Positions 11,563-58,425 of a DNA stretch of 64,000 nucleotides are shown here, piece after piece (position 1 is the stretch's first letter; each line of letters opens with the position of its first letter). This DNA comes from a virus. Taxonomy: Duplodnaviria > Caudoviricetes. Position numbers and translations under genes: made by a program. The notes under the pieces are model-generated. The model ran no database searches. It saw only the letters and a program-made list of their open reading frames with translations, and was not told where the DNA came from. The stretch lies in the IMG/VR virus record IMGVR_UViG_3300029705_000041. The stretch is one strand, 5' to 3'.

Positions 11563-12520
11563 AAAAAATTAAACAAATAAATAATCTTATTATTAAAGTA
11601 GATACATCTGAAGGAATTAATTATTTTGGAAGAATATCAGCAAATAAAAATTATAATAAATATTCAGTTTGGACACCGGATGGAATATGTTGGGAAGATG
11701 GTCTCACATTAAAAGAGGCGGAAATTTTTTGTAAAGAAACTAAAGATTTTTGTAGGAGGAAAAGATAATGATTATCAATCATATAGAGGAAATAGAAAAA
11801 GAATTACCACAACTTGCAGAGATTAGAGACACAGATAGCAATAGAGAGTTTGTACCATTTCAGAATTGGAATAACAGACTTAAAAGCATCTCAACAAAGA
11901 ATTTGCGCAAGTATAAAAGTGCATTAACAGGAACTTGTTTGGAGTCATATTTTAGACCTTGCATTATCTGTATTCATCCTGATGATAAATTGATAGAGAT
12001 AAACAAGGAAAAGTATAAGCTGATTCGTAAACACGTGATGTCAGAAGAATATCATAGATAAGGTGACAAAATGGATAAAAATACAATGTATGAAAGAGCT
12101 TATCCAAGACCAGCTAAAGGTGATAAAGAGGGTGAATATAGTTACTTGTTTACAGAATGTGGAAATACATGGTATTCAACTACTAAAAATCCAATGTATA
12201 GAGATAATTGTATTTGCCCTAAATGTCGAAAAATTATTAAGGTCATAATGCCTGGAGGTGAATAGTTGTGAGAGTAAAATATATGACCGTTTATGAAGGT
12301 CAACAGTATAATCTATCACAATATCCAAACTTCCATAAATCGGGAAGTGTAAGAGGTACGAAGAAACAGTTTTACGGAAAAGATGCTCTGATAGTTCGGA
12401 GCAGCAGTTATTATTATAATGTACCGGAAAAAGTTTACAATGCTGCACACTAATCAAAAACTTATATTTTTGCGGCTTATTTGGTTGGTTTAAATACTGA
12501 GATTAGAAATATCTAAGAAA

Positions 12521-12580
12521 GCCGAAATGTGAGAATATTGTTACTCACAAAAAACTATGTAATGGTAATTGTGATTTGAG
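12521..12580 (+). ncRNA. putative tracrRNA/scaffold-leader of CRISPR array 1
   Basis: GCCGAAA-TGTGAG...CTCA hairpin shared with 14169-14218; AACTATGTAAT (12553-12563) is complementary to repeat nt ATTACATAGTT; ends in ATTTGAG. Confidence 0.6.
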
Positions 12581-12802
12581 GTTTTAGAACTATAAGAAAT
12601 TACATAGTTACCAAACGACATATTTGGAGTGCCAAGAAAGATTGATGTTTTAGAACTATAAGAAATTACATAGTTACCAAACACAATGGAGTATTTATGT
12701 GATAAATATAGTGTTTTAGAACTATAAGAAATTACATAGTTACCAAACTATATGTAAACGTTCAATGTTAAAAGTAGCGTTTTAGAACTATAAGAAATTA
12801 CA
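12581..12802 (+). CRISPR. CRISPR array 1: 3 full + 1 truncated 36-bp repeats, three 30-bp spacers
   Basis: repeat GTTTTAGAACTATAAGAAATTACATAGTTACCAAAC at 12581, 12647, 12713; 24-bp partial at 12779. Confidence 0.95.
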
Positions 12803-12825
12803 AAGAGAAAGAAGGTAATAACAAA

Positions 12826-14124
12826 ATGAATGAAACTTGTGTTATTACGAGAAAAGTTAAATTGTTTCCTGTCGGAAATAAAGAAGAAGTTAATCGTGTT
12901 TATAAATATTTAAGGGATGGAATAGAGTCTCAAAACAAAGCGATGAATCAATATATGACTGCATTATATGTAGCAATGATACAAGAAGCAAGTTCGGAAG
13001 AAAGGAAAGAACTTAAAAATCTTTATCAAAGAATCAGCACAAGTAAAAAAGGAAGCGCTTATGATAAAACAATTGAATTTGCTAAAGGACTTCCAATGGG
13101 AGGCTCTATTACAACAAAAGTGAAATCTGATTTTGATAATGCAATGAAAAAAGGTCTTAAATATGGTAGAATCTCACTTCCTTCGTACCGAGACAAAAAT
13201 CCATTGCTTATTCATCGAGATTATGTAAGGCTTCTTGAAACAAACCCTCATTTAAACAATGGGATATATCATAATTATAAAAATTCGGATGAATTTAAAG
13301 AACATTTATATAAAGATGATTTTGAAATGTTCATTAAATTTGCAAATGATATTACATTTAAAGTTATTTTTGGAAATCCACATAAATCAAAAGAATTACG
13401 TTCTGTTTTTGGAAATATTGTGGACGGAATATATAATGTCGGAGGCAGTTCTATAGGAATTGATGGAAATAAGATTATTTTGAATTTATCTATTGAAATT
13501 CCAAAAAAGAAAGTAGAATTATCAGAAGATATTGTTTGTGGAGTTGACTTAGGCATTGCAGTGCCGGCAATGTGCGCTTTAAACACAGATGATTATAAAA
13601 GAATGAGTATCGGTTCGGCAAATGATTTTATTCGAGTGAGAACAAAAATTCAGGCTCAATACAAACGATTGCAAATGAGTTTAAAAAATACTAGTGGTGG
13701 TCATGGTAGAAAAAAGAAATTATCGCCCTTAAATAAATTTAAAGAATATGAGAAAAATTGGGTTAATAATTATAATCATATGGTTAGTCGCAGAGTAGTT
13801 GACTTTGCTATAAAAAATGGGGCAAAATATATTAACATAGAAAACCTTGAAGGATTTGGCAAGTCTAAACATACATATATTTTACGTAATTGGTCTTATT
13901 ACCAATTACAACAAGATATTATTTATAAGGCGAATATGGTAGGCATCGAAGTTAGAAAAGTTAATCCATATCACACTTCTCAAAATTGTAGCTGTTGTGG
14001 TCATTGGGAAGAAGGGCAAAGGCTTGACCAGGCACATTTTGTTTGTGGCTCATGTGGAGCGACACTGAATGCTGATTTTAATGCAGCAAGAAATATTGCA
14101 ATGTCAACAGATTTTATAGAATAA
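12826..14124 (+). CDS. cas12f: compact type V (Cas12f/TnpB-like) RNA-guided nuclease
   Basis: 432 aa; RuvC-I GVDLG, GGHGR, RuvC-II NIENL, WSYYQLQ, Zn ribbon CSCCG..CGSCG, RuvC-III NADFNAARNIA; arrays on both sides. Confidence 0.85.
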   Translation: MNETCVITRKVKLFPVGNKEEVNRVYKYLRDGIESQNKAMNQYMTALYVAMIQEASSEERKELKNLYQRISTSKKGSAYDKTIEFAKGLPMGGSITTKVKSDFDNAMKKGLKYGRISLPSYRDKNPLLIHRDYVRLLETNPHLNNGIYHNYKNSDEFKEHLYKDDFEMFIKFANDITFKVIFGNPHKSKELRSVFGNIVDGIYNVGGSSIGIDGNKIILNLSIEIPKKKVELSEDIVCGVDLGIAVPAMCALNTDDYKRMSIGSANDFIRVRTKIQAQYKRLQMSLKNTSGGHGRKKKLSPLNKFKEYEKNWVNNYNHMVSRRVVDFAIKNGAKYINIENLEGFGKSKHTYILRNWSYYQLQQDIIYKANMVGIEVRKVNPYHTSQNCSCCGHWEEGQRLDQAHFVCGSCGATLNADFNAARNIAMSTDFIE

Positions 14125-14168
14125 TATACATAGAAAACAATAATTTGTAAGTAACGGTAGGTTTTGCT

Positions 14169-14218
14169 GCCGAAAAGTGAGAAGATTAAAATTTTACTCA
14201 TTAAAGCTTGTATTTGAG
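14169..14218 (+). ncRNA. putative scaffold-leader of CRISPR mini-array 2
   Basis: GCCGAAAAGTGAGAAG...TTACTCA...ATTTGAG, homologous to 12521-12580. Confidence 0.55.
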
Positions 14219-14320
14219 GACTTAGAGCGGTATAAAAATACATAGGCACAAAATTAAAAGATGAGGCAATAAAAAAATTAATTGGATTTAGAGTAGTATA
14301 AAAATACATAGGCACAAAAT
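14219..14320 (+). CRISPR. CRISPR mini-array 2: two 36-bp repeats, one 30-bp spacer
   Basis: GACTTAGAGCGGTATAAAAATACATAGGCACAAAAT (14219) and GATTTAGAGTAGTATAAAAATACATAGGCACAAAAT (14285); the latter is 24/36 identical to the array-1 repeat. Confidence 0.75.
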
Positions 14321-14384: not shown

Positions 14385-14444
14385 CAGAAAAAGTATTGAC
14401 AATGAAAAAGTTTTATGATATACTATTTATAGTAAATGAATTAC
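14385..14444 (+). promoter_or_regulatory. repeated-family promoter plus GTAA-N5-TTAC box upstream of integrase
   Basis: TTGACA(14396)-17bp-TATACT(14419); GTAAATGAATTAC 14432-14444. Confidence 0.8.
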
Positions 14445-14448
14445 TATA

Positions 14449-15432
14449 ATGAAAGAAGGTAAAATTATGGCAGTTGCAACATTAAATCCAATCACAAAAG
14501 AGGAAGCTATCAGAAGTGGAAATATTGTTATGTTATTTCCAAATCAAGTTGCAAAACAAGAAGTAAAGCTAAAAAAAGATGGCACGCCTAAGAATATTAA
14601 ATGTAATAAAGTAAAAGGAAAAAAATCAGAAGTTTATCCTTTTGAAATTCAAGATATTAAAAAAATGATGAGCTATTTTAAAGAAAACGAATTATGGCTT
14701 CATTATTTGATTTTTGTATTAAGTTGCAATATGGCACGAAGAATAAATGATACATTGTCAATTAATTGGGAAAATATCTATAATCCTGAAACCGGCAGAA
14801 TGAGAGCTGATTTATTAGAAATAACAGAAGATAAGACAGATAAATTGGCGAATCCGAGAATTAATTCTGCTTGTCGTGCTGCAATTGAATTGTATATCAA
14901 AAAGACAGGTTGTAATCCTGCAAAAGATAATTATAAAACACCGGTTTTCCTTCAGCTTTCCGGAACGTACAAAGGTAAGGTAATTACAGATGACGGTTAT
15001 CGTAAAGCTCTGAAAAAAGCAGCGAAAGCTATAGGTATAGAATATAATATAGGCACACATAGTCCAAGAAAAAGTTTTGGTATGTTAAACCGTATGTTGC
15101 ATCCTGGAGATTATGATAGCATGGAAATATTGCAATCAATATATAATCATAGTGATGCTAAAACTACAAAACATTATATTGGATTAACTAAACAAAAAAT
15201 CAATAAGTATTACGATGATATGGGAGACTTTTTTGACGATTATATATTTGGGGACAAAGAATATACTTCCATTTCTGAAACTCCAATTATCAGTATTGAT
15301 TCAAATGATTTTAGAGATGTGATTAAAGCTGCATATGAAGCAGGAAGAAATAATTCTGGAGAAGAAGATATTTCAATTCATATTGATGCCATAAATACAA
15401 TTTTAAGCATGGTGGAGCAGCTTGCAAAGTAA
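14449..15432 (+). CDS. tyrosine recombinase/integrase
   Basis: ARRINDTL (R), KT, HSPRK (H-x-x-R), YNHS..TTKHY (H,Y) catalytic set. Confidence 0.9.
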   Translation: MKEGKIMAVATLNPITKEEAIRSGNIVMLFPNQVAKQEVKLKKDGTPKNIKCNKVKGKKSEVYPFEIQDIKKMMSYFKENELWLHYLIFVLSCNMARRINDTLSINWENIYNPETGRMRADLLEITEDKTDKLANPRINSACRAAIELYIKKTGCNPAKDNYKTPVFLQLSGTYKGKVITDDGYRKALKKAAKAIGIEYNIGTHSPRKSFGMLNRMLHPGDYDSMEILQSIYNHSDAKTTKHYIGLTKQKINKYYDDMGDFFDDYIFGDKEYTSISETPIISIDSNDFRDVIKAAYEAGRNNSGEEDISIHIDAINTILSMVEQLAK

Positions 15433-15806: not shown

Positions 15807-16265
15807 TTGACTATAGATTTTCCGCCGTGGCAAGCAGTTTGTTACATAGATGTCACAAAAGGAGCGGATAGTATGTCAAACAACAATGTAATTTCTCGTC
15901 CAAAATGCGGCGAAATCTGGATGTGTAATCTAACTACAAAAGAGGGCAGCATTCAAAGCGGTTATAGACCGGTTTTCATCTTGTCGAATAATAAGAACAA
16001 TACATATAGTCCTACGTTAAACATAATTCCAATAACAAGTAAAATGAATAAACGTAGACTTCCGGTACACGTTGAATTATGGAGCTATCAAGATTATGGC
16101 TTGAAAACACCAAGCACGATGTTGATTGAACAAATTATGACGATTCCGGTAGAGCATCTTGATATGTGTGTTGGACAGATTTCCGACAGCAAGATATTGA
16201 GCAGTATTTGCAAAGCAATCGAAATTCAATTTCCGATTATGCAACTTACATCTATGTGTTGTTAA
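15807..16265 (+). CDS. mazF: PemK/MazF-family endoribonuclease (start probably ATG 15873)
   Basis: GEIWMCNL...GSIQSGYRPVFILSNNKNN..SP..IIPITS...LPVHV...EQI motifs. Confidence 0.85.
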   Translation: MTIDFPPWQAVCYIDVTKGADSMSNNNVISRPKCGEIWMCNLTTKEGSIQSGYRPVFILSNNKNNTYSPTLNIIPITSKMNKRRLPVHVELWSYQDYGLKTPSTMLIEQIMTIPVEHLDMCVGQISDSKILSSICKAIEIQFPIMQLTSMCC

Positions 16266-57219: not shown

Positions 57220-58425
57220 ATGAATAAAGTTGATATTAAAATTGTTATAGGTAGTAATTATGGAGATGAAGGAAAGGGTCTAGCCACTCATTATTTTTCT
57301 CAAAATGCTAAAAGAGAATGTAAAAAATGCTTAAACGTAATGTTTAACGGTGGTTGTCAAAGAGGGCATACTGTTGAATTAAAGAATAACACAAGACACG
57401 TTTTCCATCATTTTGGTTCAGGAACTTATGATTCTGCTCATACATATTTTGATAGTAACTTTATGGTGAATCCGATATTTTTTATAAAAGAATATGTAGA
57501 ACTTTACAATTCGGGAATAAATCCAACTTGTTTTATATCTCCGGATTGTAGAGTTTCTACACCATATGATATGCTTATAAACCAGGTTGTTGAGAGAGAA
57601 AGAAATAAAAACAAACATGGTTCTTGTGGATTTGGCATATATGAAACACAGCAGAGATATAAAAATAGTAAATATAATTTAACATTTTCTCAAATGGTTA
57701 ATTGCACAAATGAAGAATTAAAAACATATTTAACCAATATCGCAAATGATTATGTATATAAAAGAATTAAAGAATATAACATAAAGTGTGTTTCAAATGA
57801 AATTAAGCTTATATTAAATTCTGAAATATTAATAACAAACTTTATTAATGATTTCAGAGAAATGGTTTCTATTGTTCATCAGAAGCAATTTGAAGAATTA
57901 ATGCATAGTTATAATGTTATTATTTTTGAAGGTGCGCAAGGTTTAGAGTTAGATGAGGATAATATTAAAGGATTACCACATTTAACACCTAGCAAAACTA
58001 CTTCGCAGCTACCTTTAAAAAGAGTTCAGAATTTACAAAATAAAAACATTGAAGTGTGTTATATTACAAGGTCATATTTCACGAGACATGGTGCCGGTAA
58101 ATTTCCTACAGAATGCAATAAAAGTTGTATTAATAATTGCATTGAAGATATAACAAATGTAAACAATGAATTCCAAGAATCTATACGATATGGATTGTTT
58201 GACAAAATAGAATTTGCAAACAGAATTACCACTGATACAAGTATATCAAAACAAATATATACGGACTATACAACATCAGTATTTGTTACGCATCTTAATT
58301 ACACTAATGGAGATTTAGCAGGAAATTGTACTTTGAATGATATAATAAATATGTTCGATAAAGCATATCTTTCTGATTCTAAATATTCGGAAGATGTGAA
58401 AATGGAGGAAAACAAATGGCGATAA
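57220..58425 (+). CDS. adenylosuccinate synthetase-like protein
   Basis: GSNYGDEGKG, GHT, HGSCG.GI, FEGAQG..LD, TRHG.G. Confidence 0.85.
   Translation: MNKVDIKIVIGSNYGDEGKGLATHYFSQNAKRECKKCLNVMFNGGCQRGHTVELKNNTRHVFHHFGSGTYDSAHTYFDSNFMVNPIFFIKEYVELYNSGINPTCFISPDCRVSTPYDMLINQVVERERNKNKHGSCGFGIYETQQRYKNSKYNLTFSQMVNCTNEELKTYLTNIANDYVYKRIKEYNIKCVSNEIKLILNSEILITNFINDFREMVSIVHQKQFEELMHSYNVIIFEGAQGLELDEDNIKGLPHLTPSKTTSQLPLKRVQNLQNKNIEVCYITRSYFTRHGAGKFPTECNKSCINNCIEDITNVNNEFQESIRYGLFDKIEFANRITTDTSISKQIYTDYTTSVFVTHLNYTNGDLAGNCTLNDIINMFDKAYLSDSKYSEDVKMEENKWR

Follow-up and report, generated by a model that had tools for sequence, protein, structure and literature searches.

A predicted type V-F Cas12f module of a Caudoviricetes phage whose arrays carry type II-A-like integration signals

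How does a CRISPR locus on a phage obtain its spacers when no adaptation gene is found with it? The question is raised by a 64-kb stretch of DNA from a Caudoviricetes virus (IMG/VR record IMGVR_UViG_3300029705_000041; the whole stretch of 64,000 nucleotides (nt) is hereafter called the window), in which a preliminary description had seen a hybrid locus, namely a phage Cas12f-like nuclease served by arrays built like those of type II-A and supplied with spacers by the II-A machinery of the host. On the + strand, between positions 12472 and 14320, a first trans-activating CRISPR RNA (tracrRNA-1), array 1, cas12f, tracrRNA-2 and array 2 follow one another, and these five parts, all on the + strand, probably form a single transcript. 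We are highly confident that they constitute a working type V-F module with tracrRNAs, arranged as fused tracr–array cassettes, and we consider it likely that the spacers are acquired in trans through some host integrase. On whether this donor would be of type II-A, which is judged here from sequence features, we regard the case as evenly balanced.

The cas12f gene (12826–14124, + strand) encodes a protein of 432 amino acids (aa), P0001, in which, as described before, all three RuvC catalytic residues are present between the two arrays: D241 (GVDLG), E339 (IENL) and D417 (NADFN). Each of them aligned to the identical motif in the structure PDB 8hr5, which also shares the CxxC...CxxC zinc ribbon spanning C388 to C410 (CxxC at 388 and 407). 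P0001 matched the Pfam family PF07282 (Cas12f1-like TNB domain; 4.4e-22, 78 bits, cut-off 26), and the nearest solved structures were 8hr5, presumably CnCas12f1 (1.4e-78), 9nzo/9nzr (Cas12f; 2e-65), 8j3r (8e-44) and 7wju (1.6e-42). Within NCBIfam, guided_TnpB was the sole model above its cut-off (165 bits, cut-off 100) and no named Cas12 model reached its own; identity as Cas12f2 was discarded, given the 115 bits obtained with the Cas12f2 model versus a cut-off of 450. Judged by these sequence features, the effector is a Cas12f1-type nuclease. The small size of about 400–700 aa and the C-terminal TNB zinc ribbon that characterise type V-F CRISPR-Cas12f are found in P0001, together with the D/E/D triad, kinship with characterised Cas12f proteins, adjoining arrays with variable spacers and a tracrRNA anti-repeat predicted to pair with the repeat, weakly so in cassette 2. 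The cas1, cas2 and cas4 genes that a canonical V-F1 locus has of its own were found neither in the 64-kb window nor in 10 related viral records.

Homologues of P0001 are abundant, with more than 1,500 proteins at E ≤ 0.001, the best 120 of which are 62–99% identical over most of their length. They come mainly from metagenome assemblies, several of them on contigs that look phage-like and reach 596 kb, and one cluster carries the source label Caudoviricetes. In the relatives L010 (8572–9678) and L007–L012 (8326–9471), which sit on phage-like contigs of 115–597 kb, a reverse transcriptase (RVT_1) and a tRNA-like sequence were observed just upstream of cas12f, and on one of these contigs a second TnpB (368 aa, HTH_OrfB_IS605) is inserted right ahead of the gene.

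A tracrRNA-like scaffold lies ahead of each array. In scaffold 1 (12472–12580, + strand), an extended stem 1 (12472–12524) is followed by stem 2 (GTGAG/CTCAC, 12529–12533 and 12544–12548) and by the anti-repeat AACTATGTAAT (12553–12563), complementary to repeat positions 19–29, after which a variable linker leads to ATTTGAG (12574–12580). In scaffold 2 (14144–14218, + strand), stem 1 occupies 14155–14172, stem 2 starts from GTGAG at 14177–14181, and a shortened anti-repeat is joined straight to ATTTGAG (14212–14218), with eight pairs and a 2-nt bulge when read by eye. Since this anti-repeat is shortened and four of its nine pairs are non-standard in the covariance model R1 (see below), the activity of cassette 2 appears less certain; scaffold 2 is kept, with two substitutions, in the relative L069.

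The window shares with 15 related cassettes the same module, which stands ahead of the first repeat and on the same strand. Its order is a 6-bp stem (consensus CGGTAG...CTGCCG), AAAG, the second stem GTGAG...CTCAC, the loop of which differs widely in length, TAAAA, an anti-repeat of 9–12 nt, a variable linker and TTTGAG. As a search for the anti-repeat by longest duplex was non-significant in this AT-rich DNA, homologous position and covariation were used instead. In the 16-sequence alignment, 92% of cells were paired, compared with 79% after shuffling and 27–47% when the partners were slid. Furthermore, 12 of the 20 pairs, including five of the nine anti-repeat:repeat pairs, showed compensatory changes on both sides, and none of 500 shuffles equalled the real alignment on any of these measures. 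The model R1, which was built from this alignment, gave strong matches in the 64-kb window only at 12496–12620 (E 3e-16) and 14144–14258 (E 6.5e-17), with one weak extra match (E 0.005) inside array 1.

The anti-repeat pairs, in the manner of Cas12f guides, with the repeat's 3′ third. Each scaffold abuts the first repeat of its array, whose opening unit therefore comes close to a single guide of natural origin. The pairing and the position of the scaffold together point to a guide in which the repeat is read before the spacer, as it is in type V. The stretch ending in ATTTGAG, which the preliminary description had treated as a plain leader, is by this prediction mainly a tracrRNA gene in both arrays. 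Some relatives (L003/L016/L025 and L009) have fused cassettes without an array, a deletion having removed the junction together with two thirds of the repeat on its 5′ side; these cassettes are mostly devoid of the junction (L003/L016/L025), and L009 retains a TTCAGAG remnant.

Other arrangements of the cassettes were observed among relatives. L003/L016/L025, from a Roseburia sp. 1XD42-69 scaffold, have fused tracr-guide cassettes only, on both sides of cas12f, and L016 is a provirus according to the IMG/VR call. On the metagenome contig L104 (1–2160, − strand), three tracr-repeat cassettes follow in a row, with the repeat placed directly after the anti-repeat, no TTTGAG and one spacer of 24 nt. 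A 53% identical relative, L023 (2429–2894), carries an array of ~30-nt repeats and 35–37-nt spacers ~180 nt downstream of a tracr match, and this is a further array geometry inside the clade.

With regard to the arrays themselves, array 1 (12581–12814, + strand) comprises three identical 36-nt repeats (12581–12616, 12647–12682 and 12713–12748; none expected by chance), three spacers of 30 nt each (12617–12646, 12683–12712 and 12749–12778) and a degenerate fourth repeat (12779 to ~12814) that overlaps the ribosome binding site of cas12f. Array 2 (14219–14320, + strand) has two imperfect 36-nt repeats (14219–14254 and 14285–14320), identical to each other at 33 of 36 positions, which begin with GACT or GATT and end in T instead of C, and a single 30-nt spacer (14255–14284); in L069, the repeats of array 2 do end in C. 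The DNA past the last repeat of array 2 could be usable as an extra guide. In both arrays, ATTTGAG is placed directly 5′ of the first repeat, so that the 36/30 geometry and the ATTTGAG reported earlier were recovered at the same coordinates, with the qualification that the repeats of array 2 are imperfect.

These features were compared with those of type II-A arrays, in which the junction ATTTGAG/GTTT defines Group 1 (Van Orden et al. 2017, PMC5382924) and, in the wording of that paper's citation of Wei et al. 2015, the last 10 nt of the leader plus one repeat are enough for adaptation. Array 1 agrees with Group 1 fully in its 36-nt G...C repeat and 30-nt spacers, and ATTTGAG abuts a repeat starting with GTTT; the repeats of array 2 start with GACT/GATT and end in T. 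No cas9-cas1-cas2-csn2 operon adjoins the arrays, and a search of the window for a tracrRNA of the Cas9 type, which would be complementary to the repeat's 5′ half, matched only the opposite strand of the arrays themselves. As a reference, we assembled 24 real II-A arrays located downstream of csn2 from a sample of 401 Lachnospirales genomes. Their leaders end in TTGAG (mostly ATTTGAG) in 20 of 24 cases and in ACGAG in the other four, all their repeats are 36 nt long, start with GTTT[G/T] (one with CTTT) and mostly end in AAAC or AAGC, the general form being GTTT[G/T]AGA...AAAC, and 87% of their units measure 66 nt. The II-A hallmarks attributed to the arrays were thereby borne out against both genuine arrays and the published definition.

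However, the view that such a geometry is atypical of Cas12f loci, and that the window holds a one-off hybrid, had to be abandoned for this clade, since 36/30 units with TTTGAG are the rule among the relatives. In 15 related Cas12f loci, the array units are ~66 nt long. Throughout the clade, whose proteins are 49–82% identical to P0001, the repeats are 36 nt long; of 43 spacers, 39 measure 30 nt, three 31 nt and one 29 nt, and the junction reads TTGAG in 13 of 16 cases, the remaining three being one base off (read by eye). The II-A-like design, i.e., TTTGAG, a 36-nt GTTT...AAAC repeat and 30-nt spacers, is common to the whole Cas12f clade. Leader positions −6 to −1 (TTTGAG) are conserved, while neither the sequence nor the length is constant in positions −12 to −7 and the linker. 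The repeat's 5′ end (G1, T3, T4, G7, A8) is conserved, even though it falls within the stretch that separates the anti-repeat from the site with which it pairs. Given this conservation amid variable flanks, and the array-less cassettes that are mostly without the junction, the leader–repeat junction looks selected and not just inherited.

For the repeat as a whole, a likeness to II-A could not be established. Consensus repeats of the Cas12f clade and of II-A are identical at 22 of 36 positions, and the mean identity was far above an interior-shuffle null, the rows of this comparison being related to one another. Whole-repeat homology was nevertheless dropped, because the rows are non-independent and the II-A repeats score just as high in reverse complement (19.7 vs 19.0 of 36). 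The best identity of the phage repeat to any II-A repeat was 27 of 36, and neither the JGI metagenome collection nor IMG/VR yielded the exact repeat. What is shared with II-A is the repeat ends, the junction and the geometry only, and to this extent the earlier likening of the repeats to those of II-A arrays stands.

We also monitored whether adaptation genes accompany the clade. In agreement with the preliminary description, neither cas1, cas2 nor cas9 was found in the window: phmmer searches with 308 open reading frames (ORFs) from II-A, I-B and I-C loci revealed no homologue of Cas1, Cas2, Csn2 or Cas4, and Cas9 was likewise not found, no ORF exceeding 740 aa. Cas1 was also missing from 10 IMG/VR records with relatives, three of which are estimated to be at least 95% complete (202, 159 and 163 kb), and from the 10 kb around 12 assembly loci of relatives.

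Spacers nevertheless change. Across the locus, no difference separates the window from three contigs of other samples. Contigs that encode the identical protein stem from ERZ27248306 and JGI 3300024269/3300024270, and the variant from ERZ27236857. L069, whose Cas12f is 99% identical and whose flanks hardly differ, has in array 1 a single 30-nt spacer different from the three of the window, and in array 2 a different 30-nt spacer plus five repeat substitutions. L020 and L022 share one spacer (two mismatches), which is the leader-nearest in L022 and the most distal in L020, behind three others. Such an order is what insertion polarised to the leader end would produce, and leader-proximal turnover in related phages, which the preliminary description had proposed to look for, was thereby encountered.

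For this phage-borne V-F (Cas12f1-like) module, in which the searches revealed no adaptation genes, we propose the following mechanism. Cas12f, presumably acting as a dimer, would cut DNA that matches the 30-nt spacers beside a 5′ protospacer-adjacent motif (PAM), the targets likely being competing mobile elements. The arrays would retain the II-A Group-1 integration signals, that is, the TTTGAG leader end, the 36-nt GTTT...AAAC repeat and the 30-nt spacer ruler, and the retention of these signals makes insertion in trans by a host II-A module appear the most likely route. During infection, a II-A Cas1-Cas2-Csn2(-Cas9) complex of the host would insert the spacers, and selection would then keep those that happen to have a Cas12f PAM. 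The borrowing of host II-A machinery put forward earlier thus draws support from the II-A signals, from the missing Cas1 and from spacer turnover; a link to a II-A host, the other half of that claim, did not emerge.

Several observations weigh against this explanation. Cas9 had no match in Roseburia sp. 1XD42-69, a Lachnoclostridium metagenome-assembled genome (MAG) or an Erysipelotrichaceae MAG, each of which has a relative, and the four of 401 Lachnospirales genomes with a relative are not among the 30 of 401 with Csn2, although so few cases say little. No array with a near-identical repeat was found in the 401 genomes, and the similarity of the repeat interior to II-A, being independent of orientation, does not allow the repeats to be called homologous. 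The 64 kb are only part of a genome, and cas1/cas2 could lie elsewhere in the phage. Array 2 differs from that of L069 in repeats as well as spacer, which exchange of cassettes by recombination fits as well as acquisition does, and such exchange may contribute or even dominate. Finally, II-A acquisition selects a 3′ Cas9 PAM, not the 5′ PAM of Cas12f, so that most spacers would be useless, and borrowing II-A adaptation would waste effort if neither selection nor a relaxed PAM made up for it.

The targets themselves did not come into view, the comparison of spacers with phage and host databases proposed in the preliminary description having yielded no protospacer. Against the phage collection, the window arrays gave chance-level matches only (E of at least 0.1) and the arrays of L019 and L013 none. 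Exact 22–24-mers of six spacers returned from IMG/VR either nothing or the array itself, and all 43 clade spacers were without a match in every fetched locus. Matches of the window array to the 401 Lachnospirales genomes were at chance level, two that were inspected lying in coding DNA. Conversely, 297 II-A spacer units had no real matches in the phage loci.

The strongest alternative accepts a genuine Cas12f module and holds that its II-A-like design is inherited or convergent, with no present link to II-A, new spacers coming from another integrase with 36/30 geometry (phage or host V-F, II-C or other Cas1-Cas2) or the arrays diversifying mainly by recombination between co-infecting relatives. 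GTTT...AAAC ends are found in several CRISPR types, and the alternative is favoured by the equal II-A similarity of the repeats in both orientations, by the joint difference of repeats and spacer between array 2 and L069, by the L104 cassettes with their 24-nt spacer and no TTTGAG, and by the fact that neither Cas9 nor Csn2 had a match in seven bacterial assemblies with a relative. We still consider it rather unlikely. TTTGAG, which defines II-A Group 1 (PMC5382924), is conserved amid variable flanks, the spacer lengths are distributed as in II-A arrays, the near-complete related phages yielded no Cas1 whatsoever, and recombination is unable to generate new spacers.

Further evidence on whether such effectors depend on their hosts comes from three Lachnospirales genomes with more distant relatives, in which the array beside the gene is built like that of the resident class 1 system. 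In G284, whose relative (L075, G284:C8) is 53% identical to P0001, R1 matched the same tracr scaffold (E 4e-4), and the anti-repeat, at the homologous position, can form a 12-nt pairing (two G-U) with a 33-nt repeat that starts with GTCGC and ends with GATGAAAAG; the spacers of this array are 34–35 nt and its units 67–68 nt long. On the same contig, 22 kb away, lies a complete type I-C locus (Cas3, Cas5c, Cas8c, Cas7, Cas4, Cas1), whose array has a repeat of 33 nt (GTCGC...TTGAAAT) and units as long as those of the Cas12f-side array. The G287 relative (L077, G287:C21; 47% identical over the C-terminal 264 residues) adjoins an array whose repeat is identical at 27 of 29 positions to the I-B repeat of the genome, with similar leaders; its 9-nt tracr pairing is only suggestive and without statistical support. 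In G067 (L076, G067:C1), the units are about as long as those in the Cas1-linked array of the genome, ~66 nt, and, by eye, consist of 30-nt repeats and ~36-nt spacers. A type I-C-like array is present in the Roseburia sp. 1XD42-69 genome, whose phage copy consists of array-less cassettes only.

A maximum-likelihood tree, rooted at the midpoint with G067 and G287 as a long outgroup pair, placed the G284 protein inside the clade with mostly II-A-style arrays (97/96 support), and this nesting points to a switch of array type in the G284 lineage. The match between array and resident system is the pattern expected if the effectors depend on whichever adaptation module is at hand. A wider account, which we advance only tentatively and with less than even confidence, is that this mostly phage-borne clade gave up its adaptation genes and that its arrays copy the integration signals of the module of the host (II-A in most, I-C in G284 and I-B in G287), so that host Cas1-Cas2 would immunise the phage against its competitors, with the anti-repeat co-evolving with each adopted repeat.

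The arrays could instead act mainly on host Cas9, either as RNA decoys of an anti-CRISPR kind or by loading Cas9 with phage guides, Cas12f being a second user or unrelated. Mimicry of host CRISPR repeats by phages is an established notion in counter-defence, and the repeat's 5′ half, like the leader end, does resemble II-A arrays. Guide RNAs that silence host CRISPR have also been raised as a possibility (Al-Shayeb et al. 2020, PMC7162821). This explanation is improbable, though, with the anti-repeat of the scaffold co-varying with the 3′ part of the repeats (five of nine pairs compensatory), the arrays always tied to cas12f, an identity to II-A repeats of at most 27 of 36 and no Cas9-type anti-repeat in the window. 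Least credible of all, and in our opinion very improbable, is a transposon-type TnpB/omega-RNA element with decayed guide cassettes as repeats, which can invoke guided_TnpB as the sole NCBIfam model above cut-off, the omega-RNA-like position of a scaffold 3′ of the gene and the fused single-guide cassettes of relatives, but is at odds with regular 36/30 arrays whose several spacers differ between near-identical phages, with characterised Cas12f nucleases as the best structural relatives, with the want of the one fixed guide at the element end and the TnpA or insertion sequence (IS) ends that mark an IS200/IS605 TnpB, and with the finding of no TnpA among the called neighbours of relatives, in which no search aimed at IS ends was made.

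Compared with known systems, the module most resembles published type V-F1 Cas12f enzymes (8hr5; Al3/Os/Rh Cas12f, PDB 9nzo–9nzt and 8j3r; PMC13186708), which are 415–508 aa long, share the RuvC D/E/D residues and the zinc ribbon, have a tracrRNA anti-repeat to the 3′ part of the repeat, likewise originate from gut metagenomes and match P0001 at E 1e-78 to 1e-41. It differs from them in being phage-borne, in the two tracr–array cassettes that flank the gene and in the head-to-tail fusion of tracr and array, the native arrays of the published enzymes being outside this comparison. Phage-borne V-F variants with compact arrays and without Cas1, Cas2 or Cas4 were described by Al-Shayeb et al. 2020 (PMC7162821), who suggested that host Cas proteins are used where phage repeats resemble those of the host; there, the shared repeats occur in phages without an effector, whereas here a V-F effector is joined to an array with II-A signals.

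Adaptation across types has precedents in a VI-B array that uses the Cas1 of II-C, which was shown experimentally (PMC8092290), and in type IV-A3 plasmid systems, which are reported to acquire spacers in trans (bioRxiv 10.1101/2023.06.23.546257). Both cases share with the mechanism proposed here an effector locus without cas1/cas2, an array filled by a co-resident module of another type, a common repeat length and common motifs; they differ in that theirs is the genome or plasmids of one cell and the evidence experimental, while here an infecting phage, a V-F/II-A pair and comparative evidence are concerned. The arrays of II-A Group 1 (PMC5382924; Wei et al. 2015, PMC4330368) have the same ATTTGAG/GTTT junction, 36-nt repeat, 30-nt spacers and degenerate leader-distal repeat. 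By contrast, the window has no cas9, cas1, cas2 or csn2 and no Cas9-type tracrRNA near the arrays, its leader is predicted to be a Cas12f tracrRNA gene, and the guide would be repeat–spacer, not spacer–repeat.

Phage-borne V-F systems, phage CRISPR loci that are generally without adaptation genes, and cross-type adaptation in trans are already known. A V-F/II-A link, or Cas12f arrays with II-A integration signals, did not appear in the literature searched, outside of which Al-Shayeb et al. 2022 (Cell) may describe them. If the proposed mechanism is true, host adaptation enzymes load spacers into the nuclease system of an infecting phage, with a V-F effector paired to a II-A integrase. This would extend in-trans adaptation, as in VI-B/II-C and IV-A3/host, from the genome of one cell to the phage–host boundary, and would explain by what means the numerous phage CRISPR loci that are without cas1/cas2 are kept current. 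On the practical side, the cassettes offer compact natural tracr-repeat fusions for a family of Cas12f nucleases of 420–450 aa.

The DNA around the module is phage-like, with long ORFs all on one strand, a G+C content of 30–31% and PHROG matches to a DNA-polymerase processivity factor, a NAD-dependent ligase, an integrase and a MazF-like protein; no nucleotide relative of the window was present in the phage collection searched. Directly downstream of the CRISPR module lie a tyrosine integrase (phrog_216; 14449–15432, + strand) and a MazF/PemK-like toxin (15807–16265, + strand), and the trio of cas12f, integrase and MazF-like gene is also present in the relatives L001 and L009. A near-consensus promoter (TTGACA-17-TATACT with an upstream TG) was noted at 14396–14424, ahead of the integrase. 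Further away, a 401-aa protein (57220–58425, + strand) matched phrog_1211, '2-aminooxy adenylosuccinate synthetase' (PurZ-like; E 1e-55); through this PurZ-like protein, the phage DNA may contain 2-aminoadenine in place of adenine, which could affect targeting by nucleases.

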